Of a stretch of 64,000 bases of DNA, positions 17,345-61,600 are shown piece after piece (within the stretch, counting starts at the first letter, position 1; each line of letters begins with the position of its first letter). Source of the stretch: Alphaproteobacteria bacterium (GTDB taxonomy: Bacteria > Pseudomonadota > Alphaproteobacteria > MPNO01 > UBA830); contig OZ219790.1 of the NCBI GenBank assembly GCA_964291215.2, positions 1,632,001-1,696,000 of the forward strand. The letters run 5' to 3'. Under the pieces are notes generated by a model. That model saw nothing but the letters and a program-made list of their open reading frames with translations. It searched no databases and had not been told where the DNA came from. Both the position numbers and the translations under genes were made by a program.

Positions 17345-17537
17345 CACGGTGACCCCACGCTGCTAATCCGGCGACGACTGGCGTGATTTTCTCAGTTTGC
17401 GTCGCGCTACAATCGTGCCGCCAAGGCTCGACGGGATTTTCTCGGCACGAAAATTGCGATCAAGGAGGCGATCTGTGATGATCCGAGCCTCAACGCATTC
17501 GGATTTCGCGTCTCCGAATTAGCATGGCATCGTCGTG
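17345..17537 (+). repeat. MITE-like ~190-bp repeat, copy 1
   Basis: Aligns by eye with 41228-41419 (interior reversed) and 61419-61600; imperfect terminal inverted repeats. Confidence 0.85.
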
Positions 17538-17566
17538 GGGCGGGTTGTTTTCGGGTTGTGGGCCTT

Positions 17567-17800
17567 TCAATCTGACACTATTAAGTCCATTGATTTCTGC
17601 ATATCGGCTTTCCGCATCGCTCGGTGATATTCGGTGAAATTGAGGAGGATCTTGTAGTCCTGCCAGAGTTTCTCGGTTCCCGGCAGGGGGTGGTGTTTGC
17701 CGGGGATGAAGCCTGCCACGCGTGCGACCTCGATGGCGAAGACTTTGATGGTCGGTTCGGGGTCGAGAGGTTCACGCGGTTTGTACTGTTTATAGATCTT
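17567..17800 (-). pseudogene. IS4-family (IS50/Tn5-like) transposase C-terminal remnant
   Basis: VARVAGFIPGKHHPLPGTEKLW resembles the A.L.GF.....PG...LW C-terminal motif; cut by the IS66 end at 17801. Confidence 0.6.
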
Positions 17801-17867
17801 GTAACTGCTCACCCCCTGGTTCCGGCTTGATGTCGGGGTAGAACAACGAACGGGTTTTCGTGGAGAT

Positions 17868-17896
17868 CTGACACTGCAGATCGTTTCGGTTAGTGT
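17868..17896 (+). promoter_or_regulatory. Putative sigma70 promoter in an IS66 left end
   Basis: CTGACA-17bp-TAGTGT; the same spacing occurs in three other copies. Confidence 0.5.
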
Positions 17897-17903
17897 GAAC
17901 TTC

Positions 17904-18161
17904 CTAGGCTACCTCCACCAAATCCTGATCCTGGCTGAATGTCACGGCCACATCGAGAGCGCCGTTGCGCGCGATTCGCACCATGTCGAGACCAATCCGA
18001 AGGTCTGTTTCCTTCTCGCGCTGTGCCGGCACACCATGCGTCGTACCGTCCGGAAGCGGGACCCGCTCGGAGCGCGGTTTCCGGGAGGTCACGAGAATCC
18101 CGACGCGGCTCATTGCGGTCAGGTACCGCGCCCGGCACGCCGGATCTTTCCTGGCGTCGGG
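17904..18161 (-). pseudogene. NYN/LabA (PIN-like) domain remnant
   Basis: REKETDLRIGLDMVRIARNGALDVAVTFSQDQDLVEVA matches the NYN EK..D...D....SQD.D pattern. Confidence 0.65.
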
Positions 18162-18685
18162 GTATCTCCTCACCCCTCCGCAGAGGCGGGTTTGGCGTTG
18201 TGCATCTTGATCATGTCGGCGGCGTTTCCGGCGAGTGCGATCTGGATGGCAACGAGCGGGCTGTAGCCGAGTGCGGCCATGGAGGTGAGATAGCTTGAGC
18301 TTCGGCACCAAGCCTCGGCTAGAGCGGGGTTCGGAAGCATCTGGAGACCTTGACCTTTGCCATCCGGATTTTCTGCTCGCCGGTGTTGTTGGTGAAGCTG
18401 ATGTTCGGGTCGCTCATGAAGCACAGGACGAACTCTTCATGCCTTGCGAGACGCTCCTGGAGGTTGTGCGCGTTCGCGATCGGTCCGCGTTTTCCTTTCT
18501 GTCGGGGCGGGATTTCAGGCAGTTCCTTCGCCCCCCGGGTCAGGGTGGTCCGGTAGCGCTTGCGCACGGCGGTCGGCCTCGTTCAGGGTCCTGGATGCGC
18601 TCTTGTCAACCCTGTGGCAGGCAGCAGTTTCTTCATCACGCGTGCCCGGCGGTAGCCGTTGGCGTCGACGATGACGGCCGGTTCC
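18162..18685 (-). pseudogene. IS66 transposase C-terminal remnant with right end
   Basis: AHNLQERL...SFTNNTGEQKIRMAK...SYLTSMAALG. Right end GTATCTCCTCACCCC at 18162-18176. Confidence 0.85.
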
Positions 18686-19979
18686 GTCGCGGTAGGAATG
18701 CGCATTGCTGCGCACCTCCCGCACAGATCCGGACTTGGACGCCAGTCCATCCGGCCTCGGGTGCTTGACGGTAAACCGCCGGTTCAGCCATGGGTAACGG
18801 ATGGGCGGCCAAGGAAGTTTGGTCATGCGCTCCAGTCGCTTCCAGTTGAAACGGTGGCGTTGGGAGCGGCGGCGTATCGCCCGCATCCACCGGCGTTGCA
18901 GCCTTTGGCGGAACGTGCACAGCCATCGGCCCGGAACGACGAAGTAGTCGAGCCAGCCTTGACAGACCCGCCGACCTCCCATATGTCGTGATGCCATCGT
19001 TTGCGGAGCACCTCCTCGATGCAGGTCCTTGCGACCCGTTTTGCGACCGAGCCTGAAGCGCCCTGCCCGGGTCTTCGTGCAGAAGTGCCTGAAGCCCGGG
19101 AAGTCGAACCCGCCCGGCGCTTCCGGCGGTTCGCCGTGGCGAACCGGCCGAACTCGACGATTGTCCGGGTGCAGGTCGAGACCAAAGCGGCCTCTCCCGA
19201 ACATCGCGAAGGTATTGCTCCGCATCCCGCTTGTACTGCAACCCGACCACGATATCGTCCCGGACAATGATCGCTTGACCATCCGGAACCTTCGGGCGCC
19301 ATGCCTTGTGAAACCACAGATCAAGCACGTAGTGCAGAAACACGTTCGCAGGGGCTGACAATGGCACCCTGAGGCGATCCAACACCGGTGTCGCTCCATG
19401 GCGCCAGCGTTCAGCCACTTGCGAATCAGCACCCGCCTGTCGCCAATGCGGTGCTCAAGGAGCATGATCAACCAATCCCTCGGGATCGTGTCGAAGAACC
19501 CACGGGCATCAACAATCCAGTTGACCTTCCGCCGTTCCACCGTGACTGCATCGAGCGCATCGTGCGCCCCGGCCGGAAACCGTAACTGAACCCGAGGAAC
19601 TCCGTCTCGTGGAGCGGTACCAGAATCGTGTCCGTCACCGCCCGCTGCAGAATCTTGTCCTCCAGCGAGGCAAGCGGTCGTTGCCCTCCATCCTCTTTTG
19701 GTATGTATACCCGCCGCGACGGGGGCACCCGATACGCATCCCTGTGCACACGGGCGTGCAGGTCGGCCAGTTCCGCGCCTTCCGCGTACGCGTGCCACGT
19801 AACTTCGTCCACCCCCGCTGCCGCGTCCTTTCTCAAGGAGTGAAACGCAGCGTGCAGGACGTCACGTGGTGGAGCAACGTCACAAGACGCTCTTCCGGAT
19901 TCCTCTTCGCAGCTTGTCGTATGCGCCGCCTGTGACCCGCTTCTGCGCGCGGCGCGGGTCAACCGCATTGCCCTTCCCT

Positions 19980-22900
19980 ATCGCGGTAGGGAACCGGGTT
20001 ACCCCGGTCCCCCCGCACGGATCCGGACGTGCGCTGTTCGCATCCGGCTCTTCCCTCAAGTCCTGACGACAAGGCGCTGGCTTGGCCACGGGTGGCGGAT
20101 GCTGGCTCAGTGGGCAGCGATAAGGGTGTCCAAGACCCTCCAATCGGTGCGGTCCTTTTGGAAGCGTCGCCGAAGGGCACGCAGCAGTTTGCATTGGTAT
20201 ATGAACTCCCGCAGGCTGCTTCCCGGAACGGCGTAGTAGCAGCCGTTGATAACTCACCACTTGGCCGTCTTGTGCCGGTTGTCGTGCCACCGCATGCGCA
20301 AGGCCTCATTGATCCGCCGCAAGGTGCCCGTTTGCGAGACGGTTTGCGACCAACCCTGAACCTGCCTTTCCTCGTCTGCTCGCAGAAGTGCGTCATGCCG
20401 AGGAAGTCGAACGTCTTGCCCACGCTTCCGGCGGTTCGCTCTGGCAAACCGACCGAACTCGATGATTGTCCGGGTGCAGTTCAAGCGGGCCAGTCTCTCC
20501 CCAAGGTCCCAGCGCTGCGCATCACCCAGATGCTGAAAGCCGCACACGAAGTCGTCCGCATAGCGGACAATGATCGTGTCAGCCATCCGCTTGCGCCAGT
20601 GGTTCTGGAACCAGTCGTACGTAGTGCAGGTTCGCAAGGCATGGCGATACGACGCCCCGAACGCAAAAGGTAACTCTCGCCTTCGGGTCCGCCGTTGTCG
20701 GGTTTCGACGGGTCCGCGCCCGGCGAGCCCGAGATCGGGATGGAATGGCGGATAGTGATTTTGTCCTCGGTGACAAGTATCTCCTTCACGAGGAGCCGGA
20801 CGATACGCTGCCGTTCGGCGATGTCCAGAGTTTCGGCTGACGAACGCAGCCGCGCCAGAAAGCCGGTCAGAGTCTCGGCGAGCCGAAGATAAGTCTCTCG
20901 ATCCTTGGCCCGATCGACAGTGGATTGCAGTTCGCGATGCAACGCTTGTTCCTGACGGCGGAGCTCGGGCGTTCTGTTGCGCAACTCGTCGATGGTGATC
21001 AACTCCTCCTGATAGGCCGTGACGAGGCGGTCGATGGCCTTGCGGACCCAGCCGATGCCGAAGGTCGGCTGCTGGCTTGGATCGGAGACACGGGCTGCCT
21101 CCAGTCCGATCTCTGCTTTCACGAGCGCCGGATCTTCGAGCAAGCGGACCAGCCATACGATGTCATCGAGCAGATGCACGGGACGGCTGTTGCACAGCGG
21201 GCCGTTGAGATGGCGCCAGGCGTCGGAACCCAGGCAGCGGTAGTAGGAGATCTTGCGCGCAGTGGTGCGGGCCGACGTGCGATACAGCGCGTAGCCGCAT
21301 TTGCCGCACGCCCCTGCGAGACGCTGGGCGTTTTGGTCCTACGCCTGGAGAAGACCTTGTTGCGTTGCTCTTCGGCGAGGGCGAAGGTCTCTTCGCTGAC
21401 GATCGCCGGCACTGGGATCTCGATCCAGTCTTCCCGCGGCCGTTCGTGACCGGCAGTGTTGCTGTCGGCGAACCCGTCGCGGCGGCGCAGAGGCCGCACG
21501 CTGCGGCGCAACCCGGGTCTTGCACGCCCTTCCCTTGTACTCCGCAGGATCACCACCGAGCGTTCCCAGCGCCCGGAAGACGTGGGGACACTTGTTGAGT
21601 GTGCGAGCGATCGCGCCGATGCTGACGTGATCTTCGGTGTAATGGCGGTAGATCACGGACGCCTGCGGTTCGGTGATTTCGTAGAAAGCGTCGCTGTCCT
21701 GGGTTTTCTTGTGGTAGCCATAGGGTGCGCCGGCGAGGACGGCGACCTCGCCGCGCCCGATGACGCTTGCCGCGACGGGAACGCTCCAGAATCTGCGCCC
21801 GCTCGTATTCCGCGATCATTCCCTGGACGAGGAGATGGTCTTCGGGGGTTTCCATCGACGGCAGGAACACGGTCTCAACGCCGGGCCAGCTCCTCGATGA
21901 TCAGAACCTGATAGGCGGCGGCTCAAGCGATCCGGGGCATGGACCAGGACGGCGCGCCCCTCCGCGGCGAGGTCCCTGACACGCGTTCGAGAACCGCGCC
22001 GGTATAGCCGTCATCCTCGATGACCATGTCGGGCGCCACGCAGTAGCCATGGCGTGTAGGCAACCAAGGCCTGGCTGGCGATCGTGTTGCTATCCCTGCT
22101 CGCCCGAGACCCACAGGGCTGCAATCTTCATGATCGTCTCCTACGTCGTGGGTTGGGATCTTGTGGGCCGGGCACCAGGATCGCGTAGGCGTTCTGGAGC
22201 TTGGCGGCGAGCAGACGATCAAAGTCAAGGTGAACGGCGGGCCGAGAGCTTGAGCGGCGTTCAGCAATGACGACCCATGTCCGAGCGTCTCAAAGCCCGC
22301 GCGACAATCTCCCCTATCGAATCGCCGCTGCTCCTGGAATGCGCCCGCAAAGCCTCCGTGCCTGGAATCTTGATGGTGATCGGGATCACCGCCTCGGCCG
22401 GCTGGCGCACGCCTCCTGGAGGTAGCGATACGCCGTGACAAACCGAAGCGCTGAGACAGGCACCGCTTCGCTTGCCGTCACGCCTTGGGCGAGCAAGGTG
22501 TACGCGGTGCCGCTCGACCTTTTGGGATCGCGATGATCGGGCCATTTGTCATAACGATATTACCGTTTGCGTCTCAAGTCAATCAAAGGGCGGTCGCGCC
22601 AATGCACAATTTCGCGCTCAAAGCGGAAGTTACCTTTTGCGTTCGAGGCGTTACAATCGCCCCTTGCGGTGTTCCCTTGCCAGTCGGTCCCTTCCATGAC
22701 GCCGGCGTCACTTGATGATCAGACCCCCCGATCCGTTTCTCAAGCATCGCAACCAGCTGGTCGCGGTTGTCGAAGAACCCCCGGGCGTCAACGATCCAGT
22801 TGACCTTCCACCGTTCCACCGTGACGGCGCATGATGCGCCCCGTCCGGAAGCCGTAACTAAACCCGAGGAACTCCGTCTCGCGGCACCAGAATCACACCG

Positions 22901-23625
22901 CCCGCTGAAGAATCTTGTCCTCCAGCGAGGCAAGCGGTCGTTGCCCTCCATCCTCCTTGGGTATGTAGACCCTGGAGGCGCCCGGTACGCACCCCTGTGC
23001 ACACGGGCGTGCAGGTCAACCAGACGGTCTTCCAAACCCTCCGCGTACGCTTGCCACACAACGCCCCGCCGCCGCGTCCTTCCTCAAGGAATGGAACGCA
23101 TCGTGCAGAATGTCGACCGTCACGTGGTGGAGTAAAGACGCTCTTCCGGGTTCCTCTTCGCTACCTGCGTTCAGCCGCCTGTGACCCCCGCTTCTGCGCG
23201 CGGCGCGGGCCAACCGCATTGCCCTTCCCTCAAACAACTCCGCAGGCTCCGAAGAACCCTTGTTCGCCGCCTTCAACGGTACTATGGCCGAATCTGACTT
23301 CTCGTTCATCATCGGTTTACGGATTAGTTCCTTTCCTCTGCGGCCCCTCCACGACAGAGGGGCAAGACCTCCCAGGTCCCTGCTTCGGCCATGGTTCTCA
23401 GACCCCGCGGAGCCCCCGTCTGCCTCACCAATACGGCACACAGGGTGTTGCCTTCGGCCACGACCTCGGCACTCCGGTTTCACAGAATCTCGTGGCTCAA
23501 TAGCCCGGCCTGCCGCTCACCAACGCTTCGCCTCACGACGCATGGTTCACGGAGAAAGTGGTGGTTAGCCTCTCTTCCTGCCGGGACTTGCACCCGGCAA
23601 CATTCCACCAGTTAGCCTGGCGCAC
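19980..23625 (-). mobile_element. Group II intron 2, nested in intron 1, degenerate RT retaining YADD
   Basis: 5' GTGCGCCAGG at 23625. 3' AGCCGGATGCG...CACGTCCGGATCCGTGCGGGGG...CCTACCGCGAT ends at 19980. IVRYADDFV, GTPQGAIV. Confidence 0.85.
20648..22654 (-). mobile_element. Large serine recombinase element (degenerate) integrated in the intron 2 RT gene
   Basis: Fragments DDGYTGAVLER, APDRL, GMIAEYERAQILERSRRGK, EIPVPAIVSEETF, C-terminal ESYLLRSGR. 24-bp inverted arms at 20652-20675 and 22628-22651. Confidence 0.85.
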
Positions 23626-23921
23626 CCAGCAACTCCGCAGGCTCCGAAGAACCCTTGTTCGCCGCCTTCGACGGTACCATGGCCGAATCTGACTTCTCGT
23701 TCATCATCGGGTTACGGAATAGTCCCTTTCCTCTGCGGCCCCTCTACGACAGTGGGGCAATTGAAAGACCTCCCGGGTCCCTACTTCGGCGTGTGCCATG
23801 GTTCTCGGACCCCGCGGAGCACCTGCTCGCCTCACCATCGCGGCTCGCAGGGTGTTGCCTTCGGCTTGGCGGACCATCTCGATACTCCGGTTTGACCTGA
23901 ATCTCGTGGCTCGATAGCCCG

Positions 23922-24761
23922 GTCGGGTAGGCCGCTGGCGCGCGCATCCTTAGGCGAAGGCTTTATCCGTCACCGCTCTTTCGATTGCGGGCGGGTTCGC
24001 AGAATCGCCATAGACCACGTTTCCAGCAGCCCCCCTAAAATTCCGTACGTCCGGTTTTCCCGGTTCAAGCATCAGGCACCCACTTGGAGTTCGGTGCGGA
24101 GCCTTCCCACGCCATGGTCAAGGCTGACCCAACCATACCCACGGCATCTCCGAGCGTTTGCTCCGTCCTTCGGCCTTGCAGTCTGTCGGTCGGTGCCGGT
24201 CTCTGCGTACCGGCTTGACCTGCCGCATAGGCCACCTGAGCCCTGAGGTCCTCGTTCGGGACGGGTTGTGTTGTCCCGCCCGTAAACGCTTAGGCGACCT
24301 CATCCGCCAGTCAGGAGGACTCCGCGTCCTTTCCCGTTTCCCGGTTATAGACGCGGTCCTTGACGGGTCACTTCATCCTGTCTGTCCTCCTCACCTTCCG
24401 GTCTTTCACTGCTGATCTGTCCCGGATTGCCGCCGTCTGTACCCCGGGGAACCCGATGCGTGTTCCTCCGTTCTTCCGCATCGACACTGGCCATCGGGTA
24501 GCAACCTTGGCGTTCACCGTCTATCCCACAAATCAGCTTCGTGTGGGTGGGGAATTTCGGGGCTTCCCGTTCGCTTTCGCCCTCCGGTTTGCTCGCCGCC
24601 CTGGCTGACCGAACCGGCTGGACACTGCGTTCCAGCCAGCCCACAACGGCTTCCTACGTCCCAGCTCGCTGGTCCAGGGTCGCCCCTGAACCAATGCTAC
24701 GGCGCCAAACTGAGAATTGCGGGACTTTCACCCGCAAGATCAGCAGCTAGACTCGCTGCAC
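23922..24761 (-). ncRNA. Group II intron 3, ORF-less, nested in domain I of intron 1
   Basis: 5' GTGCAGCGAG, GCGGGTGAAAGTCCCGC, domain V-like GGAAAACCGGACGTACGGAATT, long domain VI ending CCTACCCGAC. No RT motifs seen. Confidence 0.75.
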
Positions 24762-24879
24762 GCCTGCCGCTCCCCAACGCTTCGCCTCGCGACGCATGGT
24801 TCACGGAGGAAGTGGTGGTTAGCCTTTCTTCCTGCCGGGACTTTCACCCGGCGACATTCTGCCAGTTAGCCTGACGCAC

Positions 24880-25063
24880 CCACCGGATAGTCGCACCCGA
24901 ACCCGTCCAGCGCTCCCGGTCGATCCCGATAGAGCGCCGGCGCCTTGCGCTTCATCAGCGCGCCGCCTCCCGGATGCGTTTCCACATACAGACCATGCGG
25001 AGGCTGGAGCCCCGGAAGCAGCTGGCACAGCCCGCTCGTCGCCTTCGATCCAAAGTAGCCCAC
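24880..25063 (-). pseudogene. DNA adenine methylase (Dam/D12-class-like) N-terminal remnant, IS66 passenger
   Basis: MGYFGSK...PPH..YVETH.GGGA resembles the Y.GGK...Y.EPF.GG(G)A SAM-binding motif; further copies start at 28190 and 30795. Confidence 0.7.
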
Positions 25064-25091
25064 TGGCGGTCCCCATCGTTCTCAATGACCG

Positions 25092-25120
25092 TCACTAAAC
25101 GAATCGGGCTGCAGTGTCAA
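25092..25120 (-). promoter_or_regulatory. Putative sigma70 promoter in an IS66 left end
   Basis: TTGACA-17bp-TAGTGA on the minus strand. Confidence 0.55.
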
Positions 25121-25372
25121 ATCTCCACAAAAACCCGTTCGTTGCTCTACCCCGACATCAAGCCGGAACCAGGGGGGTGAACAGTTACCAATCACCAAAA
25201 TAAACCTCTGCGGAGATCGTCATCACCGCACGAACGAACGCTTACGTCGCAATCGTGCCGACGAGAAAAGAGCCGTAGCGGCTGTGATATGCTGGCGAAC
25301 CAGCATTCCCGACTTGTCCGGCGAGCAGGCGGGGTCCCGGGGATTTCGCATCTGGGTGTTCCGGAAGTTCAC

Positions 25373-27355
25373 ATGGTTTCTCGGACGACTGATATCGACG
25401 ACGCCCTGATCCGGGGCATTGCCGCATCTGCCTTCGATACCGCAAGAGACGACGCCGAAGCGGTCTTGGCATCTGTCCTGCCGGATCTCGACGCCGTGCA
25501 ATTACGCCTCCGAATCGAGACCGTACGGAACACCAACGCCGGCGCACCACCGAGCCGCGCGTCGGAAAGGGAGTTGGCGACATTTCGCCAGCTGTTGGCC
25601 GAGCGGAAACTCGACGGCTTTCTCGTTCCGGTGGCAGACGAATATCAGGGGGAGTTCATCCCGCCCAGCGCACAACGCTTGAGATGGCTCAGCGGTTTCA
25701 GCGGATCCGCCGGGCTCGCCGTCGTCCTTGTGGACAGGGCCGCGATCTTCGTTGACGGCAGATACGAGTTGCAGGCCATTGACCAGGTCGATGCCGATAT
25801 GTTTGATTTGCATCATCTGACGCGGTCCCCGCCGCGCGACTGGCTTGCCACCCACGCCAGATCCGGCGCGCGGGTAGGCTTCGATCCGTGGATTCACACA
25901 CCAAACGGCCTCCGCGGCCTCAGCGAAGGATGCCGAAAGGCAGGCGCCGAACTTGTGCCCGCGGTGCCCAATCCCGTCGATACGGTCTGGACTGACCGTC
26001 CGCCGGAGCCAGTCGGCCCGGTGGCGCCGCACGAAATCCGCCACGCCGGCGTCAGCGCCGAGGACAAGCGCCGGCAAATTGCCCGGAAGATCGCCGGACA
26101 AGGGCACAAAGCAGCGGTGATCAGCGCGCCGCCCTCCGTCGCGTGGCTGCTCAATGTACGCGGATCAGACATCGCCAACACGCCACTCCCGCTGAGCCGG
26201 GCCATCATCTATGCCGATGGCCGCGTCGACTGGTTCATCGATCCGCGCAAGGTCGGCGATACCGTCCGCGCAGCGCTTGGTCCGAAAGTCGTGGTCCGGG
26301 CTCCGGACGGATTCGGCCAAACGCTTGACCGTCTTGGCAGTGAAGGCGCCTCCGTCCTGGCCGATCCCGCGACGACACCAGAATGGATCGTGCGGCGGCT
26401 TGCCGACGCGGGCGTTGCGTCCTCGACCAGCAGCGACCCCTGCGAGGCGGCCAAGGCGACAAAGAACCCGGTAGAGCTTGACGGCGCCCGCGCCTGCCAC
26501 ATCCGCGACGGCGCCGCGCTGTGCGAATTCCTCGCATGGCTGTCCCGAAAAGCGCCGGGCGGCGGGGTGACGGAGCTTTCGGCAGCGGAACGCCTGACAG
26601 AATTGCGGCGGCGCGATGCGACCTACAGGGGTCCGAGTTTCGACACCATATCGGGGTCGGGACCCAACGGCGCGATCGTGCACTACCGGGTGTCGGAAAG
26701 GACGGATCGGACCATTGCTGATGGCGACATGTACCTTGTCGATTCGGGCGCCCAGTATCCCGACGGCACCACCGACGTCACGCGGACCGTCTTCATCTCC
26801 GGAGATGCCGCCACACGGCCCTCCGACGAGGCCAAGGACCGCTTCACGCGGGTGCTAAAGGGCCATATAGCCATTGCCACCGCCCGGTTCCCGGAGGGCA
26901 CCACCGGCGGACGGCTCGACACCCTGGCCAGGGCCTCACTGTGGCAGGCGGGCCTCGACTACGATCACGGCACCGGCCACGGGGTCGGAAGCTATCTCGG
27001 CGTTCACGAGGGGCCCCAGCGCATTTCGTCGCGCCAGGATTCGACGGCCCTCGAGCCCGGGATGATCCTCTCCAACGAGCCCGGCTACTATCGGCCCGAC
27101 GCGTACGGCATTCGCATCGAGAATCTCGTCGTCGTGCAGAAATGGGAAGGTGGCGGAGAGGACGGCCGGAACATGCTGTGTTTCGAGACTCTCACTCTTG
27201 CACCGATCGACCGCTTCCTCATCGAATCCGCGCTGCTGACGCCCGAGGAACGGAACTGGCTGAACGGTTACCACATATGGGTACGCAAAACGCTCGCCCC
27301 AAACCTGTCGCCAACGGCAAGACACTGGCTCGAAGAAGTCACGGCCCCGATCTGA
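25373..27355 (+). CDS. Aminopeptidase P family (Xaa-Pro aminopeptidase, M24); start uncertain
   Basis: WLSGFSGSAG, DSGAQYPDGTTDVTRT, HGTGHGVG...VHEGP, SNEPGYY, GIRIEN. Confidence 0.92.
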   Translation: MVSRTTDIDDALIRGIAASAFDTARDDAEAVLASVLPDLDAVQLRLRIETVRNTNAGAPPSRASERELATFRQLLAERKLDGFLVPVADEYQGEFIPPSAQRLRWLSGFSGSAGLAVVLVDRAAIFVDGRYELQAIDQVDADMFDLHHLTRSPPRDWLATHARSGARVGFDPWIHTPNGLRGLSEGCRKAGAELVPAVPNPVDTVWTDRPPEPVGPVAPHEIRHAGVSAEDKRRQIARKIAGQGHKAAVISAPPSVAWLLNVRGSDIANTPLPLSRAIIYADGRVDWFIDPRKVGDTVRAALGPKVVVRAPDGFGQTLDRLGSEGASVLADPATTPEWIVRRLADAGVASSTSSDPCEAAKATKNPVELDGARACHIRDGAALCEFLAWLSRKAPGGGVTELSAAERLTELRRRDATYRGPSFDTISGSGPNGAIVHYRVSERTDRTIADGDMYLVDSGAQYPDGTTDVTRTVFISGDAATRPSDEAKDRFTRVLKGHIAIATARFPEGTTGGRLDTLARASLWQAGLDYDHGTGHGVGSYLGVHEGPQRISSRQDSTALEPGMILSNEPGYYRPDAYGIRIENLVVVQKWEGGGEDGRNMLCFETLTLAPIDRFLIESALLTPEERNWLNGYHIWVRKTLAPNLSPTARHWLEEVTAPI

Positions 27356-27639
27356 TCGAGGGTTTCCGCCTGTCCTGGACCTTGGCAACCAGATTCGACC
27401 GCCTGCAGGGACCGTGTGCAGGCGGAGAATGCCGGCGGCCAGTCCATTACCTCCCGGTCCGCCCGCAAAAGCCCAGCGACCGGCTTCGTCCCGCCGGCAC
27501 GGTAGCGGCGCCATCTGATCGCGGAGCCTGCAGGACAGGTTCGTCCATACTCAATGCTGCACGTAACTGCTCACCCCCTGGTTCCGGCTTGATGTCGAGG
27601 TAGGCAACGAACGGGTTTTCGTGGAGATTTGACACTGTA

Positions 27640-27990
27640 CCCAAGTTGGCACTTTTTGCGTCAGTTGAAGGGGAAATTTATGCGCCAGCCCCGCTCCATA
27701 TAGTATATGTTGGTGCTTCATGTGCTATACTCACTGTATCTGCGGTTTCCTGCCCAAGATGGCCGGTGTAATGCTAGGATATTGCCAATTCGCTCGACCC
27801 CGCCGCCAAACCCGGTATATCTGGAGCCTCGTCAACACAAAAGCCTCCAGCCAACATGTTCATCAGGGCAACCAAAACCCACAGCACCGCAGACGGCAAA
27901 CCCGTCCGCAGCCACCGGCTCGTGCTTTCTCAACGCATCGGCGACAAGGTCAGACAGCGCACCCTGCTCAATCTCGGCACCGACTATCCG
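27640..27990 (+). pseudogene. IS1634-family left end and transposase N-terminal remnant
   Basis: MFIRATKTH...HRLV.SQRIGDKVRQRTLLNLG from 27857. Confidence 0.65.
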
Positions 27991-28065
27991 GTGGGGGGGG
28001 GCTAGCCCCCCAGTGAAACGCGGCGCCATCGTGCTATCCCATGGAGCTGTAAACATTCATGGAGA

Positions 28066-29606
28066 GTAACTGCTCACCCCCTGGTTCCGGCTTGATGTCG
28101 GGGTAGAGCAACAAACGGGGTTTCGTGGAGATTTGACACTGCAGGCCGATTCGTTTAGTGGTGGTCATCGAGAACGATGGGGACCGCCAGTGGGCTACTT
28201 TGGATCGAAGGCGACGAGCGGGCTGTGCCAGCTGCTTCCGGGGCTCCAGCCCCCGCATGATCTGTATGTGGAAACGCATCTCGGAGGCGGCGCGCTGATG
28301 AAGCGCAAGGCCGGGTGATGGCGACGGGCGGCGCGCGAGGAGTTCGAAGCGGCCAAGACCGCGGCGCTGCCGGCAAGGTGGCGGAAGAGGCCGTGATCCG
28401 CGTCTTCGTCATCCTGCTCGACATCATCATCGTCGTCCTTCTGGAGAAGACCACGCACGAGCCGGAACTCCGGTCTGCCGCCGTCACAGACGGACAAGAG
28501 CGTGCCGGGAGCAAGGGCCCGAAGCCGAACCGGCAGATGGGCGACAACCTGCGCAAGACCATCGTCGAGGAGACGGTCGCGGCCTGCGACGCCTGCGGCG
28601 CCGACATCGACGGCCCCGTCGATCGGGAGCGCCGCGTCCTCTATGACATCGTGTTCGAGGTAGTCGAGCGCCGCACCGAGATCAAGAAATGCCCGAAGTG
28701 CAAGGCCCGGGGCCGGTTCCCCGACAACATCCCGTGCAGTACGGCATCGGCATTCAGGCCCTCGTCATCAACCTACTGGTCGCCCAAATGCTGTCCCTGC
28801 GCCGTGCCGTCGCGTTCGTGCAGGCGATCTCCGGCATCAAGCTCTCCGAGGCCTCGGCTATGCTTTCACGATGCGTCATGGGAGGAGGCCGCCGTGGCGC
28901 ACCTCCTGCAACGCCCGATGTCGACGATTTCGGATCAACAGTAAGTGGCTTCATGTCGTGGGACCCTGACGTGCAAGTTCCCGCACCGCAAGCGCGGCCG
29001 GGAGGCAAGAGATCGGCATCATCCCGTGCTACAAGGGCGTCCTGGGCCTCGTACATGGGCTATAACCAGTGTAGCCACCAGTTGTGCGGCAGCCACCTGC
29101 TGCGCGAACTGACCTTTGTTGTCGAGGCTACCGCGCGACTGATGAAGAGCCTGCTCCGCGAGGTCTGCCACAAGGTCAACAAAAGCGCATCCAAGACCCT
29201 GAACGACGCCGGGCCGTGCGCAAGCGCTACCGCACTATCCTCACTCAGGGCGCCAAGGAACTGCCCGACATCCCGCCGCCGCCGAAAGGAAAACGTGGAC
29301 GCAAGTCCGACGCGCACAACCTGCACGAACGTCTCGTGAAACACGAAAACCTGCGCTTCACAGACGACCCCAACGTCAGCTTCACCAACAATGCCGGAGA
29401 ACAGAAAATCAGGATGGCAAAGTTCAAGGTGTCCGGATGCTTCCGCTCCACGCAAAAGCATGGTGCCGGAGCTCAAGCTACCTCACCTCCATGGCCGCAC
29501 TCGGCTACAACCCACTCGTCGCCACCCAGATCGCCCTCGACGGAAAAGCCGCAGACATCATCAACGAGCACTATGAATCAGAACCCAACAAGGGGTGAGT
29601 AGATAC
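28066..29606 (+). mobile_element. IS66-family element (MTase remnant plus eroded transposase) with 8-bp TSD
   Basis: CATGGAGA|GTAACTGCTCACCCC ... GGGGTGAGTAGATAC|CATGGAGA. Transposase fragments NSGLPPS, CPKC, QLCGSHLLREL, FTNNAGEQKIRM. Confidence 0.9.
28133..28161 (+). promoter_or_regulatory. Putative sigma70 promoter in an IS66 left end
   Basis: TTGACA-17bp-TAGTGG; identical copy at 30738-30766. Confidence 0.55.
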
Positions 29607-30733
29607 CATGGAGAAAGCGAATGGACCTGCGACACACTACGACGATCGGGACTGTTTTGGAACATCTGATCGCAAACGGAGCAACGGATCTGGGGCGGAT
29701 CTTTGGTCAGCTCTTCGAGCTTGCGATGCAAATCGAGCGCGAGCAGCACTTGAAAGCGGGCCACCGGACACCGGAGCGACAGGGCTATGCCAACGGCTAT
29801 AAGCCCAAACGGATCGACACCCCCACTGTTACCGTTCAGGTGCCAAAGACGGCCGGTCACGGGGACGACCCGTCCCCAGTCGCTTGAACGCGGCCAGCGA
29901 TCTTCTCGCGCCGTGGCCGTAGCTGAGATGTACATCAAGGGTGTTTCCACGAGGCAGGATGTAATGCGCGAGTTCGGGAGCCTGTCCTCTTCTCAGGTCA
30001 GCCGGGCCACCAGGTTGCTCGATGAAGAACTCGCCGCGCAACCGGCCCCTGATGAAATACCTGGATGCGCGCTATGAAAAAGCCCGCCATGACGGCGTTG
30101 TGCGCGATGTTGCAGTGCTCTCGGCCATCGGAATAGGGGCTGCAGGCACGTTCTGGGGCTCTCTGTGGCGCTCTCCGAGGCCGAGGTCCATTGGAAAGCC
30201 TTCCTGGAAAGCTTGCAAACCCTGCATGGTACGACCTTCATCGTCTCGGATGCCGGGTTGAAAGCGGCACGACGCGCGGTGCTGGGCGCGGCGATGTGGC
30301 AGCGCTGCCAGTTCCACCTGGCGCAAAACGCCGTGCACCGAACAACGGCATCAGGAAACGTATCGGAAAACAGCTCGGAGCCACGCCTCCTCACTCCAAA
30401 CCGCCGAGGCTGAACCGGGCACCCTCGTGGCCAGCTATCGCGACAAGCATCCAGGCTTCCTGGCTGGAAAACAATGCGGGGCTCGCTGTCTTCACCTTGC
30501 CCGATGCTCACCACAAGCGCATGCGAACCTCGAACGGCATCGAGCGACCGATCCGGCAAGAGCTCAAGCGGCGCACCTCCAAAGTCAGGGTCTTTCCGAA
30601 CCTCGCCTCGTTGGAGCGCTTCTCAACCGCGGTCCTCATCGACGAAAAATGGGAAACCGAAACCAAGGCATACATCAAATGGGAGCAGCTCGATCAGCTT
30701 CACGACAATTTCCAGACATCAGGTTGCGTAATC

Positions 30734-31364
30734 AAATTTGACACTGCAGGCCGATTCGTTTAGTGGTGGTAATCGAGAACGACGGGGACCGCCAGTGGGC
30801 TACTTTGGATCGAAGGCGACGAGCGGGCTGTGCCAGCTGCTTCCGGGGCTCCAGCCCCCGCATGATCTGTATGTGGAAATGCATCCGGGAGGTGGCGCGC
30901 TGATGAAGCGCAAGGCCGGGTGATGGCGACGGGCGGCGCGCGAGGAGTTCGAAGCGGCCAAGACCGCGGCGCTGCCGGCAAGGTGGCGGAAGAAGCCGTG
31001 ATCCGCGTCCTCGTCATCCTGCTCGACATCCTCATCGTCGTCCTTCTGGAGAAGACTACGCACGAGCCGGAACTCCGGTCTACCGCCGTCACAGACGGAC
31101 AAGAGCGTGCCGGGAGCAAGGGCCCGAAGCCGAACCGGCAGATGGGCGACAACCTGCGCAAGACCATCGTCGAGCGCCGCGTCGACGCCGAGATCAAGGA
31201 ATGCCCGAAGTGCAAGGGCCGGTTCCCCGACAACATCCCGTGCAGTACGGCGTCGGCATCCAGGCCCTCGTCATCAACCTGCTGGTCGCCCAAATGCTGT
31301 CCCTGCGCCGTCGCGCTCGTGCAGGCGATCTCCGGCATCAAGCTCTCCGAGGCAACCTGCCTCG
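30734..31364 (+). pseudogene. Continuation of the outer IS66: promoter, MTase remnant and transposase N-terminus
   Basis: Near-duplicate of 28131-28850 with additional deletions. Confidence 0.85.
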
Positions 31365-31543
31365 ACCACTCGCCTCCGCGCCCGATGGCACGGGCCTCCG
31401 TCGCCGCCCACAGGCGCCGCGCACGTTCGTTCAGAACCGGACGCAACACCACAAACTTGGATCGCAGCGTATCGACCATCGCTTCCATGACATCATCGAT
31501 GGCAGATCCACACCAAAAAATAACCTATTTTGGCGAGAGACCT
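31365..31543 (-). pseudogene. ISAzo13-family transposase N-terminal remnant and left end
   Basis: LRSKFVVLRPVLNERARRLWAATEARAIGRGG. Confidence 0.75.
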
Positions 31544-31544
31544 A

Positions 31545-31845
31545 AGCACGTCTGCGGGCGGGCGGACAGCGGTCTCGGTCAGTGGTTCGACCACGGCCTG
31601 CCCGCGGCCGCATCCGCTGCGGCGCCGGCAGAGGCGGAGGTGGGGCACGGGTTCGGCCTTGCCGGTCCGAGCCTCTGGCGGTGCTCACCCCCTGGGCCGG
31701 GCTGAGCCTGGCGGGCGCACGCTGCGGCTCGGCACCCGCTACCACATGGACGCGGGGCTTTCGCTCGGCCTCAAGGGCGCGCACCGGCCGGGTCCGGCTC
31801 CCGAAGACAGCCTCATGCTGCGCGGCGCGCTGCGCTGGTCGAACG
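31545..31845 (+). pseudogene. Autotransporter-like beta-barrel C-terminal remnant
   Basis: Frameshifted fragments EAEVGHGFGL, VLTPWAGLSL, LRLGTRY, terminal LMLRGALRW. Confidence 0.55.
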
Positions 31846-31953
31846 CCCGGAGATGGCGCGTCAGGTCTCCGACATGCAGTTTGGCATTTCATTGCTCTAC
31901 CCCGACATCAAGCCGGAACCAAGGGGTGAGCAGTTACTGCTGCACAGGCGTTT

Positions 31954-32760
31954 TCATGTCTGTCCAATAGTCGGCAACCAACTCGGGCGGAACGTGTCCT
32001 CGAACAGGCGCCAGACAATGTCCGGACGCTCGACATGGCAATTATGTCCTAGCCCGTCGAGGACGACAGCATCGAGATCCAGCACCCGCATATCGTCAAG
32101 CGTGCACATCCGGTCTTCGCCGCCGGCAGCAAGCCGTACGCGTGCGTCCGCCGCATGGTAGAAGGTGGCGAGCTCCGGTCCGGCGACGGCATTGACCACA
32201 TTGTCCGCGGCCAAGCGAAAACGCCCGTTCTCTTCCACGACGCCAGCCGTTGCCATGTGCGAATCCGGGGCGACCAGGCCGATCAGTCCCGAGACCTTGA
32301 GGTAACGGTCGATTGCCTGGTCGCGTTCGTCGAACCAGCACACCGGCCTGGCAGCCAGGTCCTTGAGCCTCGCAATCTCCTCTTCGGTCCAGCTGATCTT
32401 CACGCCGAAGGCCAGCGCACAATTCACGGTCACTCCGAACCAGCCGGTCGCCAGCGCCATCGCGACGGCACCACCCATCGAATGGCCGAGAATGACGATT
32501 TCCCGACCCTGCCCGCCGACGGTCGCCGCCACGTCCGCAGCATGGACCGCATAACCGTAGGGCGATGCATGACCGGAACGCCCGTGCCCCCTGAAGTCAG
32601 GCGCGATCCAGCGATGGGGCCAGGCTTCCCGAACAATGGGAATCAACGGATCCCACACCGAAGCGTTGGCACCGAGACCGTGCAGAAGCACCAGTGTCGG
32701 ATCACCGGATCCGCCCTCTTCGAACCACAGCGAACCCCCGTCGGCAGTCGTCGCATTCAT
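31954..32760 (-). CDS. Alpha/beta hydrolase
   Basis: LLHGLG, APDFRGHGRS, GHSMGG nucleophile elbow, GHNCHVE. Confidence 0.88.
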   Translation of the reverse strand: MNATTADGGSLWFEEGGSGDPTLVLLHGLGANASVWDPLIPIVREAWPHRWIAPDFRGHGRSGHASPYGYAVHAADVAATVGGQGREIVILGHSMGGAVAMALATGWFGVTVNCALAFGVKISWTEEEIARLKDLAARPVCWFDERDQAIDRYLKVSGLIGLVAPDSHMATAGVVEENGRFRLAADNVVNAVAGPELATFYHAADARVRLAAGGEDRMCTLDDMRVLDLDAVVLDGLGHNCHVERPDIVWRLFEDTFRPSWLPTIGQT

Positions 32761-32806
32761 TGCGGAATTTCCTCGCGAGCTGAAAGCCGGCCGCTGCCCC
32801 CAAGCT

Positions 32807-34366
32807 TCATTGCGCACCGGAGGAAAGTGCGTAACGCCCGTCTTCCAACCTTTCCAGACCGTGTGTCCTCCGGACGTCATCGAGCGCCGTCACGACCTCA
32901 CGGCCATCCCGGCTACAGGCCGCCTCCATGAGATCCCGGAAGGTCCGTGGGCCAAGCTGCAGTGCTTCCAGCACCGAGCACGGTGTTCCGGCCGCAATAG
33001 TCGGCGGTTCCGGCACCAGATAGTCGGTCTCCGGATTCCACCCGAAGGGGAAGGTTAGATCAAATCCCGCCTTGGCGCCGAGACGCGAACCATCAAGCGA
33101 CGGATCCAGCGGAACCGCACGATAACCGCTGGTCGGGATGAAATCCCTGTCGGCCTGAAAGCGGGTCGCCAGCGCCCAGTCCATCTGCTGATCGGAGAAA
33201 ATGTCGATGTCGGGATCGACCGCAAAGACATGCTTGACATCAGCCTTCGATCCGAGCACTGCAGAAATCGCGTTGCGCGCTTCGCCGGGATAGTTCTGCT
33301 CAATGCAGATGCGCGCATTGAACATCCCGCCGCACGACGGCGTGACATATACGCCACGCGGATTGCGCACCGCGGTCTCAAGGGCCTGCCACACTGCAGC
33401 TTCGGTGCGAAGCGCGCAAAGCTGAGCCGTATCGGTGCAGTCCAGATGCCGCCCGCCTATGGTCAGCGTCTGGAACAGCGCGTCGCGCCGCTTCGTGATC
33501 GCCGTCAGATGAAAGACCGGATTAATCTTCATGTGGCCGTAATAGCCGACATATTCGCCGTACGGCCCCTCGCCCTCGTGCCAGCCCTTCTCGTCCAGAT
33601 AGCCCTCCAGCACGAACTCCGCATCGGCAGGAACCCAGGCATTTATCGTCACGCATTTGACCAAGGGCACCGGGGCGCCACGCACCGAACCCATGACACC
33701 GAGTTCATCCTCGTGGACCGTCATGCTGGTGGCGGCAATGCCGTCGGCAGGATGGGATCCGACGACAAAGGCCATCGGCATGCGTGCGTCCTCCCGGACG
33801 AAGGGCGCATACATGCCCCGGAGATCGCTGGGCGCTACGAGGTCGATGCCCGCTTCCCTGCGTCCGCGAAGCATGATGCGGCGATATCCCACGTTACGTT
33901 TCGTTCCGTCGAGACTGCAGGTGATGTCGATGCCCGCCGAAATGTACGGAGCACCATCGAGTTCGTGCTGGAGATGAACCGGAAGGCGCGTGAAGTCCGC
34001 ATCTCCGCCCTCCCAGACCACCTCTTGGCAAGGCGCCTCAGCCGCGGTGACTTCCACCGGAGCAATGGACCCGCGCAGCCGTTCGATGACGGTCTGCTGA
34101 AGCTTGCCCGGTTCGACACCGAGCGCCATCGCAAGCCGTCGGCGCCCGCCCATGACATTGCCGACGATCTCGGCCTCTTCAGGGCCCACGGCCTCGAACA
34201 GCACAGCCTTGTCATTGCCGTCGAGGCGGGATGCCACATCGATGAGATCCGTACGGGCCCCGACCCGTTCCAGTTCTCCGGTCTCCTCGAGACGTTCGAC
34301 AAAACGCCGAAGCCGGAACGCATCCGGCCCGGATCCGGCAGACTCTGCGGCAGCCGCAGCGTTCAT
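32807..34366 (-). CDS. UbiD-family (prFMN-dependent) decarboxylase
   Basis: DFTRLPVH...DGAPYIS, VPADAEFVLEG, EGPYGEYVGYY, WALATRFQADRD. Confidence 0.9.
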   Translation of the reverse strand: MNAAAAAESAGSGPDAFRLRRFVERLEETGELERVGARTDLIDVASRLDGNDKAVLFEAVGPEEAEIVGNVMGGRRRLAMALGVEPGKLQQTVIERLRGSIAPVEVTAAEAPCQEVVWEGGDADFTRLPVHLQHELDGAPYISAGIDITCSLDGTKRNVGYRRIMLRGRREAGIDLVAPSDLRGMYAPFVREDARMPMAFVVGSHPADGIAATSMTVHEDELGVMGSVRGAPVPLVKCVTINAWVPADAEFVLEGYLDEKGWHEGEGPYGEYVGYYGHMKINPVFHLTAITKRRDALFQTLTIGGRHLDCTDTAQLCALRTEAAVWQALETAVRNPRGVYVTPSCGGMFNARICIEQNYPGEARNAISAVLGSKADVKHVFAVDPDIDIFSDQQMDWALATRFQADRDFIPTSGYRAVPLDPSLDGSRLGAKAGFDLTFPFGWNPETDYLVPEPPTIAAGTPCSVLEALQLGPRTFRDLMEAACSRDGREVVTALDDVRRTHGLERLEDGRYALSSGAQ

Positions 34367-34534
34367 CTGTACCTCCGTTCCGGCTGTGTCTCGAATCCGT
34401 CCACGTCGCAACAGCGCCGGATCAAATCCGGATCGCGGAACCCACCGCCCCGAGCCTCTCCGGTTGCCACAGGACCAAGCCTGCCGCCCTTATATCATAT
34501 GTGTCCGATGAGGTTGCCCCGGAGCCGCAGCCCC

Positions 34535-36152
34535 CAGGGCTGTTCTGTTGTCGTCCCAGCGATCGGCGCATGCTTATTTTGGTCCGGGCATTCCGTTTTC
34601 GCCGTGGCAGTGTGCCGGCGTGGCGACGCTTGCGACCCCGGATTCCCTCCTTCGCGAGGTGACGGTGCGCCCGTGGCGCACGTGAGCTCCGGGACCGTCT
34701 GGTGAAGGAGCATCACTAGCTGCGGTTTCACGGCATCAAGGGTCTGCGCCATGTCGCCCTGCACGGCGAGATCTGGGTGGTCGGCTGGCGGCGCTCAAGC
34801 TTGCTGCACCGCTGGATCGCTGCGGAACAGCAATTCCGGCGCCTGCACGCGAACAATTCCCGGTTCGTTGGGGGGATGCCGAACCTGGCGTGCCTTCGAC
34901 GGCTGGACATCGAGGCCGCGCGTTCCTCGCGGAGACGTTCGTCAAGCGCTTCGCCGGAACCTGCTATCGCGCGGCGAACTGGCGCTCGCTTGACGCTCGG
35001 TCGCGAGCGGCTCCGCGCGCTTCCGTCACCATGGCCAGGGGATCTTCATGTACGAACTGGGGCCGCCGGGACGCGATCCCGGAGAGCGCAGCACGACAGT
35101 GCCGGGCTTTGGCTGCGCAGCCTGTGCCTGGGCGAGGTGTGCCGCAAGCGCTATCCGCTGAGAACCATTCTCGCGGCTCGCCGGCTACCGCGGCGTGACC
35201 GCATTCGCCGCCCTCCAGGAACAGCTTGCGGCGGTGAACTCGTTCTTCAGCCCGAAGCGCTACACCGCACCCACACCTTCCACACCATCCTCGCTGACCT
35301 GCCGCCCGAGACCCTGCCCTGTAGACGGCCCGGCAGCAGACACGACGGCAAGGACATCCGCGGTGCCTCCAGCCGACGGCGGATGATGGGGTCGAGCACG
35401 GATGGTTCTCGGCCAGGCGAAGAGCAACGAGATCCCCCTCGCCAGCAGCATCAACGTCATCGGCCGCATCGTCACCATGGACGCGATGCACGCTCAGCAC
35501 GAGCGGCGGCTTCTCGAGCGCCGCATGTCGTCACGGCGATAAAAAATAACCAGAAGACCATGCTCGACGACCTCAAGGCCATCGACTTCGAGGGCTCGTT
35601 CGAAACCCTCGACAAGGGCGCATCGAGCGCCGCCGCCGTGGTCGACATCTCCGGCGCCGAGCGGGACCGCTGCGCTGCTCTCCACGGTCGCCGCCATCCG
35701 CATCAAGCGCGAGATCTGCAAGACCAAAGAGAGCAGTGTCGAGACCACCTGGTGCCTCACCTCGCTCGGCCCCGAACGCCCCGAGATGCTTCTGGCGCGC
35801 GGGTCATGGAAAATCGACTCCGCTAAGTACGCGATTTCACCTACGACGAAGACCGCTGCAGGGTGCGCCGCGCAACCTCTTGACAAACGCCGCCATCGTG
35901 CGCTGCGGCGGACACTTCATGCCCGAGGCCAACCGGCACTATGCCGCCCGCGCCCGGGACGCGCGCCATCCTCATCCCGTAGATAAACCTTCGCTCCTGA
36001 CCCCGCGCCACAAGCCGGGAACGCGCCGGCGCAACAGGACAGCTCTGCTCGAACACTCGAAAAAGCGTGCCCGTGAGCCCTGATGCACCAGCAGTGACCA
36101 CTGAAACCGGCCCACAGTGAACCCAAGGTGCCTCAACCATGCCAGGTCCCTG
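34535..36152 (+). mobile_element. ISAs1-family element with DUF4338 (DruA-like) N-terminal region, eroded; ends approximate
   Basis: NNSRF..PNLA, ETFV.RFAGTCYRAANW, then DGKDIRG, SNEIP, VTMDAMH, IKNNQ, DFTYDEDR. CAGGG...CCCTG ends. Confidence 0.75.
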
Positions 36153-36314
36153 TCACATCAGCAATCCACAGGCCCGACAAAAGAATGGTCCTGCCGCAGC
36201 CCCACCTTCGCCACCGCCGCCCGGCGCGCATCGACAACGGGCAACCGGTCGCAGCGATGACCTGCGGCACGGCACTTGCGTCTTCAGCCCGCACGAGACC
36301 GGCGGGCCTCGCTG

Positions 36315-61377: not shown

Positions 61378-61418
61378 CGCCACAAAGACTGAACCGCGCC
61401 ATCCACCGGGTCAAGTTC

Positions 61419-61600
61419 CACGGTGATCCCACGCTGCTGATCCGGCGACGACTGGCGAGATTTTCTCAGTTTGCGTCGCGCTGCAATCGTGCCGCCAAGG
61501 CTCGATGGGACCTTCTTGGCACGAAACTTGCGATCAAGGAGGCGATCTGTGATGAGCCCCAACGCATTTCGCGTCTCCGAATTAGCATGGGATCGTCGTG
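61419..61600 (+). repeat. MITE-like repeat, copy 3
   Basis: Aligns to 17345-17537 with two short deletions (5 and 6 bp). Confidence 0.85.

Follow-up and report, generated by a model that had tools for sequence, protein, structure and literature searches.

The 64,000-nucleotide stretch of DNA analysed here (the window, G000:C1:1632001-1696000) belongs to an alphaproteobacterial genome, G000, of 6.15 Mb and 64% GC. The genome is assembled in two contigs that, as GC skew suggests, form one circular chromosome, and about one third of it is repeated DNA. Its FtsZ was closest to those of marine Rhodospirillaceae-like genomes, in a scan of 3 of the 64 parts of the collection. Remnants of insertion sequences (IS), group II introns, miniature inverted-repeat transposable elements (MITEs) and a serine recombinase element lie in the window next to intact core genes. 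These remnants have been eroded by a dense series of short deletions, mostly 5–7 bp long, whose load across the genome rises with the copy number of the eroded element.

The erosion is best seen where an intact relative is available. Alignment of window positions 20641–22800 with the intact homolog from the closest relative, G001, revealed 43 gaps in 2.1 kb, 42 of them on the window side; 38 gaps were of 5–7 bp and none of 1–2 bp, at 9.2% substitutions. Dense loss of this kind had been proposed in an earlier note made from the sequence alone, and the individual cases it listed were reproduced. Two pieces of MITE copy 1, of 5 bp and 6 bp, are missing from copy 3; the IS66 copy at 31169 fuses the GTCGAG hexamers of 28564 and 28663; the 3′ halves of two intron reverse transcriptase (RT) genes share one joint, at which the intact G001 relative retains the missing 8 bases; IS66 families A and B both lack 6 bp at a homologous site; and intron 1 has lost its YA codons, 6 bp being missing. 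Core genes flanking the mobile DNA are intact, as had been stated, and match read contigs exactly. The note was right that the deletions are short and overlooked their fixed 5–7-bp size and their start motif. Two of its labels need qualification: Pfam gave no confirmation of ISAs1 for the element at 34535–36193, and the supposed autotransporter fragment, probably the feature at ~31524–31850, is a 4-copy repeat without a Pfam hit (Table 1).

Table 1. Mobile remnants and the control gene in the window, with copy numbers in the genome and gaps in alignments.
Feature	Position	Strand	Copies, gaps and remarks
MITE copy 1	17345..17522		~100 copies; matches end of a 12-copy element family
IS66 family B remnant	17799..18685	-	15 copies
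Group II intron RT remnant 1, chimeric	18686..19975	-	14 gaps of 4-13 bp vs intact G001 homolog
Group II intron 2, 3′ half	19980..20646	-	46 copies in the family; 9 gaps, each 5-6 bp
Large serine recombinase element, inside intron RT gene	20647..22657	-	3 copies; ~18 deletions/kb vs intact G001 copy
Group II intron 2, 5′ half	22658..23628	-	20 of 24 gaps are 5-7 bp; Rfam RF02005 at 23393-23590
Further group II intron 5′ remnant and 10-copy repeat	23626..24882	-	RF02005 at 23800-23964; repeat with six 6-bp gaps
Peptidase M24 gene, intact, internal control	25289..27355	+	Identical in X1 and X2 read contigs
IS66 family A copy	28066..29607	+	~165 copies; 20 substitutions vs 26 short gaps, of which 23 are 5-7 bp
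IS256 (Mutator) copy	29610..30733	+	87 copies; 17 gaps, every one 5-7 bp
Second IS66 family A copy	30736..31364	+	~100-bp loss at 31169
4-copy repeat	31524..31850	+	Probably the former autotransporter fragment; no Pfam hit
8-copy IS	34535..36193	+	17 gaps, 11 of 5-7 bp; ISAs1 label unconfirmed by Pfam
MITE copy 3	61418..61585		Carries the 5-bp and 6-bp losses

The deletions could in principle have been created by assembly, polishing or library preparation in repeats, an explanation that we consider very improbable. It draws on the nature of the control data: the evidence comes from contigs (X1, X2 and X3) assembled from three public read runs of one study with unrecorded library type, and the fine mosaic among copies described below could partly be a consensus over strains. 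However, 15 deletions defined with G001 as an outgroup are spanned by gap-free X1 contigs that extend 31 bases or more to either side. One of these contigs, which has single-copy depth, holds three of the deletions, and X2 carries a different set within the same recombinase element. A read contig of single-copy depth (46) also covers positions 19341–19533 of RT remnant 1 with zero differences. Other repeats are clean, namely the young 12-copy families, all 96 repeats of a CRISPR array and eight identical IS66 copies of G002, a second species of the same genus with ~70% nucleotide identity in core genes. Finally, all 41 gaps of 5–7 bp found in 891 intact genes are in-frame 6-mers, and 55 of the 65 across all coding alignments are 6 bp long, a dominance that is the mark of selection. 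An assembly artefact, a concern raised from the start, is thereby excluded, and the deletions themselves are confirmed as real.

A genome-wide catalogue of indels between repeat copies, built by word search for sizes of 1–16 bp, contained 4,376 distinct sites in G000: 2,488 of 5–7 bp, 380 of 2–4 bp and 636 of 1 bp. The hallmark of the deletions is size, not microhomology. Microhomology, which the earlier note had presented as the rule, is enriched (at least 3 bp at 31% of 1,330 sites vs ~7.5% by chance) but optional, being absent from 25% of the sites (51% by chance) and limited to 0–1 bp at 50% of them. The chance that a possible site is used climbs with microhomology: it is 0.3% where microhomology is lacking and reaches 43% where it extends over 6 bp; at the same time ~85% of possible sites with 4–6 bp are unused, and some zero-microhomology sites are deleted in nearly 90% of copies. 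End-joining by Ku and LigD or mediated by microhomology was rejected on these grounds, since half of the sites have 0–1 bp, the size peak is narrow and the enzymes were not found.

The removed piece is polar and in G000 tends to begin with purine-pyrimidine-C. Which sites are used could be predicted from local sequence with an area under the curve of 0.84 (18 family groups), compared to 0.755 with microhomology alone. Among overlapping deletions of unequal length, 35 of 48 have one end in common, vs 22 of 69 at random. The start motif itself is weak; no strong or distal recognition motif was found within 50 bp of junctions, and hairpins around junctions gave no consistent signal. The replication-strand bias expected of a primer footprint or lagging-strand origin was not found, at weak power: the strand of the motif relative to replication direction gave 0.549 vs 0.558 for common alleles, 42 vs 57 for private and 38 vs 31 for single-copy deletions, all non-significant and with noisy orientation calls.

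The load of deletions depends on repetition. For single-copy DNA, 1.70 Mb of the 5.0 Mb of G001 was compared with G000, with 1,003 of 1,444 called genes having a usable match. Per kb, deletions of 5–7 bp number 0.05 in the 891 intact genes and 0.22 in single-copy genes that are broken (90 genes with 80.9 kb and 18 deletions), compared to ~8–21 in large, older repeat families. Between paralogs (tiles queried: 892 low-copy and 300 of 2,430 high-copy), 5–7-bp indels per kb rise from two to more than 80 copies as 0.49, 1.06, 1.78, 3.98, 6.1, 7.8 and 8.6, while substitutions (0.02–0.06) and 1–2-bp indels stay flat. Across 56 families, which are not independent, load correlates with copy number (rho 0.67) and not with substitutions (rho 0.22, p 0.10). 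Seven genes split by insertions were found, four of them with inserts that belong to the family set; these four genes, one of which is interrupted near its start and may still work, have no 5–7-bp deletion, and the inserts within them carry 119 in 8.3 kb. In the young IS66 family (G000:C1:141536, 12 copies), as in the family at C1:924085, the transposase frames are open. The young IS66 family ends with a Dam-like methyltransferase open reading frame (ORF), identified by eye, a fragment of which is also present in the eroded IS66 family A.

These loads bear on neutral decay, in which old dead elements would erode through slippage or an end-joining mutator, with MutS removing 1–4-nt errors, eroded copies spreading in trans and gene conversion unbiased. 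A low rate of the same loss is indeed visible in single-copy DNA: over 111 kb of intergenic sequence, 98 gaps of 5–7 bp lie in G000 and 24 in G001, and coding sequence has 55 gaps of 6 bp in G000 compared to 2 in G001. The lineage thus shows the loss genome-wide, in a weak form. Also in keeping with decay are the dose-response to microhomology, the intact mutS and mutL together with a size floor near 5 nt, which fit slippage escaping mismatch repair, and some small families that have most deletions in common, as if by descent. However, slippage acting equally on all unselected DNA is contradicted by the single-copy and old-family loads. Measured against the least eroded copy of the family, eroded copies carry 0.15–0.69 deletions per substitution (10 families), compared to ~0.01 for new or single-copy events. 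Neutral decay cannot lift this ratio with copy number or favour 5–8-bp over 3–4-bp alleles, and polA, dnaQ, recA, recJ, xseA and rnhB are all intact. We therefore regard it as unlikely. A genome-wide slippage or end-joining bias, one of two explanations offered previously, is thus unsupported as the sole cause. Common ancestry alone does not explain the shared deletions either, since it cannot supply the observed load. Erosion therefore depends on repetition, older repeat families being eroded at least 30 times as densely as broken genes of single-copy DNA.

Coding alignments of G000 and G001 also showed losses of 9 bp (12 vs 0) and 12 bp (7 vs 2) and no excess at 3 bp. The in-frame coding losses may stem from this bias at work between strains. 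Intergenic 5–7-bp deletions in G000 rise with distance from high-copy repeats, from 0.25 per kb within 200 bp to 1.24 per kb beyond 3 kb, and leakage from repeats into their flanks was rejected, as deletions are rarer near repeats. A frameshift model for heavily decayed single-copy genes was likewise dropped: among 47 clusters only seven have three or more predicted frame switches. These rare single-copy regions, with three to five switches each, are G000:C1:859739-861707 and six others, and they are candidate pseudogene controls of datable age.

Copies within a family appear in the assembly as fine-scale mosaics. Linkage between single-nucleotide polymorphisms (SNPs) is lost beyond ~30 bp, and above this distance all four gametes were found for 72–89% of SNP pairs and 55–80% of deletion pairs. 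Private deletions are scarce: 14 families with up to 70 copies each contained 12 isolated private deletions of 5–8 bp (a lower bound, as the isolation filter favours cold sites) vs 1,106 private SNPs, and at 100 sites the 5–7-bp piece is retained by just one copy. Spread is size-selective: a frequency of 20% is exceeded by 40–53% of the alleles of 5–8 bp, by 1 of 14 alleles of 3 bp, by 0 of 13 alleles of 4 bp and by 2 of 39 alleles longer than 40 bp. Flank diversity of deleted vs intact copies is 0.29 at 1–3 bp, 0.62 at 4–7 bp and ~0.9 beyond 20 bp, and linked alleles number 11.7 per 1,000 at 2–4 bp vs 2.1 far away, the footprint around deletions being limited to ~7 bp. Sharing of identical deletions between families depends on identity: it amounts to 42–58% at 81–87% identity (7 of 12 at 87%; 19 of 45 at 85%, in G002; 3 of 6 aligned sites at 81%, between the IS66 B remnant at 17799–18685 and family A), and to 10 of 127 (5 by chance) among seven pairs of distant families at 62–73%. 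RT remnant 1 is itself a chimera, its 5′ part being close to the 46-copy intron family, with six identical deletions, and its 3′ part belonging to a 5-copy family.

From the scarcity of private deletions, the size-selective spread, the mosaics and the identity-dependent sharing we infer a rare origin of each deletion followed by one-way copying between homologous copies, through deletion-biased gene conversion in which each patch would span a few bases. This is the explanation we lean towards, with moderate confidence. In a first step, a 5–7-nt piece starting with purine-pyrimidine-C would be lost rarely, with microhomology helping but not needed; the pattern of such losses was observed. In a second step, a deleted and an intact copy would pair and 5–7 nt of the intact strand would loop out. 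MutS would repair such a loop poorly, and if the loop were clipped and the strand sealed, the short allele would win. Bacterial mismatch repair is efficient for loops of up to ~4 nt and declines over 5–8 nt, according to published work (PMC2504288), and the 5-nt floor of the deletions matches the loop size at which, on that account, repair weakens. The expected outcome is the one observed: the load rises with copy number, young families are free of erosion, and of the old families most no longer function.

Several findings weigh against copying. Deletion-SNP linkage is near background beyond 3 bp, and the footprint at 1–3 bp may partly be an alignment effect or reflect SNPs that protect a site. 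The direction of conversion, presumably from long to short, was deduced from frequency spectra. Where distant families have a deletion in common, a foreign allele was seen at 0 of 211 diagnostic positions within 1–3 bp of it, which means that independent recurrence occurs too. A loop-clipping enzyme specific to affected genomes was not found among the families searched. G002 copies have up to 29 deletions, with fewer than 20 copies examined. Families of 5–8 copies reach 12–17 deletions per kb, the 3-copy recombinase element, at ~18 per kb, is as eroded as the largest families, and distinct alleles per copy-kb number 1–4 in small families, above the single-copy rate. Such heavily eroded small families require formerly higher copy numbers or a raised origin rate in repeats. 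Our guess is that the copy number of the recombinase element was once higher; its depth relative to core DNA differs among the runs (~1.5, 3 and, for one part, 8).

In both G000 (20647–22657) and G001 (L025, G001:C139) the recombinase element, with two small upstream ORFs, lies inside a group II intron RT gene. The host RT subfamilies differ between the two genomes, and an empty site is also present in read contigs. The element looks like a site-specific parasite of introns.

The main rival to copying is fresh excision triggered by repeats, in which paired repeats recruit a nuclease that cuts out 5–7 nt at preferred motifs in each copy independently, sharing being due to hot spots. The start motif is oriented, and motif and size range are species-specific (purine-pyrimidine-C and 5–7 bp in G000, ATC and 5–6 bp in G002); the same deletion was found on several SNP backgrounds 3–6 bp away; and low-copy families are sometimes heavily eroded. 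Recurrence in distant families together with the shared ends of overlapping deletions (35 of 48) indicates real preferred cut sites, which keeps this explanation alive. However, continuous site strengths should give many private deletions and not the 12 isolated ones found. Further difficulties are the weak motif without a distal element, the many microhomology sites left unused at a time when some sites without microhomology are deleted in nearly all copies, and an allele frequency unrelated to site score (in eight families, the score vs the number of copies carrying the deletion gave rho from −0.16 to 0.30, none significant). Nor did the searches of G000 turn up a guide: prokaryotic Argonaute (pAgo) was not found, and no extracted spacer has a full-length match outside the array. 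Taken together, we judge fresh excision to be a rather doubtful, if still live, candidate. The suggestion of an active repeat-directed inactivation made from the sequence was thus right about dependence on repetition; frequency patterns favour one-way copying over fresh damage, and no fitting guide-dependent nuclease was found.

Searches of G000 for protein families did not find Piwi, Ku, topoisomerase IB (TopIB), RecT, NucS, ATP-dependent ligase or Prim-Pol. Ku and ATP-dependent ligase (LigD) were found in none of five genomes of the genus, and SbcD was below the cut-off in all five. The genes recA, mutS, mutL, polA, dnaQ, xseA, recJ, rnhB and cas1 are present in G000 and relatives. DinB was found in four of the five genomes and not in G001 (a 93% complete assembly), the one relative without the signature. 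Deletion at ribonucleotides through topoisomerase IB was rejected, as TopIB was not found and the RNase HII gene (rnhB) is present. A guide-directed nuclease was rejected as well: G000 gave no Piwi or pAgo match, and of 118 spacer-like pieces extracted from two CRISPR loci none matches full-length elsewhere in G000 outside the array. These loci, typed by eye, are a type I-G-like system with 96 identical repeats (G000:C1:574173-591998) and a Cas9 locus with 16 spacers (C2:2063990-2069571); no spacer of either matches the resident IS families.

The signature is also carried by IS66 and intron copies of G002, in which pairwise gaps, the pairs not being independent, number 136 of 3 bp, 34 of 4 bp, 1,327 of 5 bp, 1,760 of 6 bp and 166 of 7 bp. 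Here the removed pieces have a sharper start, ATC, in a 5–6-bp version of the pattern. In G001 the signature was not seen in assembled mobile or single-copy DNA, repeats being poorly assembled in this genome; only two gaps of 5–7 bp lie on the relatives' side in 10.7 kb of its mobile DNA. The repeats of G001, G003 and G004 were too few for the family test.

In fungi, repeat-induced point mutation (RIP) uses a methyltransferase-like enzyme to introduce new C-to-T changes; it hits repeats of high similarity and kills transposons. The process described here resembles it in that damage is concentrated on repeats and depends on copy number, with a weak single-copy background. It differs in that the damage consists of deletions, substitutions being flat with copy number, and that it is apparently copied from already damaged copies. 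The contrast between repeats and single-copy genes, which was to be expected of a targeted process, was found. It is possible, though on balance we doubt it, that an undescribed enzyme system of patchy distribution recognises paired repeats and excises a measured 5–7 nt from a motif-defined start, as a prokaryotic, deletion-based counterpart of RIP. If so, the enzyme would defend the genome by destroying transposons and group II introns according to copy number, with a ruler length and motif specific to the species.

The closest known process in its working is deletion-biased nonallelic gene conversion, in which a deletion in one paralog is copied to others (Assis and Kondrashov 2012, PMC3280953). 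It is described there for Drosophila and primate paralog pairs with a bias of ~3.4:1; conversion far outpaces mutation, paralogs shrink together and the rate tracks similarity. Features of conversion are present here too, with identical deletions in a non-tree mosaic and identity-dependent sharing. Unlike in the cases described there, the host is a bacterium, families have up to 170 copies, the deletions form a narrow 5–7-bp class with a start motif, and conversion patches would span a few bases. Deletions in bacterial pseudogenes (Danneels et al. 2018, PMC6054270) have power-law sizes and an insertion-to-deletion ratio near 0.76. They are similar in that deletions exceed insertions, many junctions have microhomology, 6-bp deletions are in some excess, and Ku and LigD are often absent; here, in contrast, there is a trough at 2–4 bp, most sites are of 5–7 bp, hardly any true insertions occur and the load varies with copy number. 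The degraded IS archives of Wolbachia (PMC3205602) likewise crowd the genome with dead IS, with conversion among non-functional copies; the portion of that report at hand describes ordinary substitutions and deletions, without a fixed-size class or directional spread. The literature search, with most subscription journals and supplements outside its reach, yielded no description of a fixed-size deletion process in bacteria.

The usual view of bacterial IS copies is that large deletions and selection remove them. In this genome entire families, one third of a chromosome, are killed in place by fixed-size deletions whose load scales with copy number. The phenomenon is real, and a dedicated enzyme of a new kind has a fair chance of standing behind the deletions. 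The data point to an unknown nuclease with a 5–7-nt ruler, in two species and apparently absent from the closest relative. Rare excision followed by copying, if this is the mechanism, would give bacteria a means of inactivating jumping genes that has not been described. The process leaks into genes as in-frame losses of two residues (the 55 vs 2 above), and it offers a setting in nature where ectopic gene conversion and loop repair of bacteria can be measured. Whether the deletions are copied or excised afresh, the two leading explanations, either would amount to a copy-number-sensing brake on mobile DNA that is undescribed for bacteria in the literature searched.

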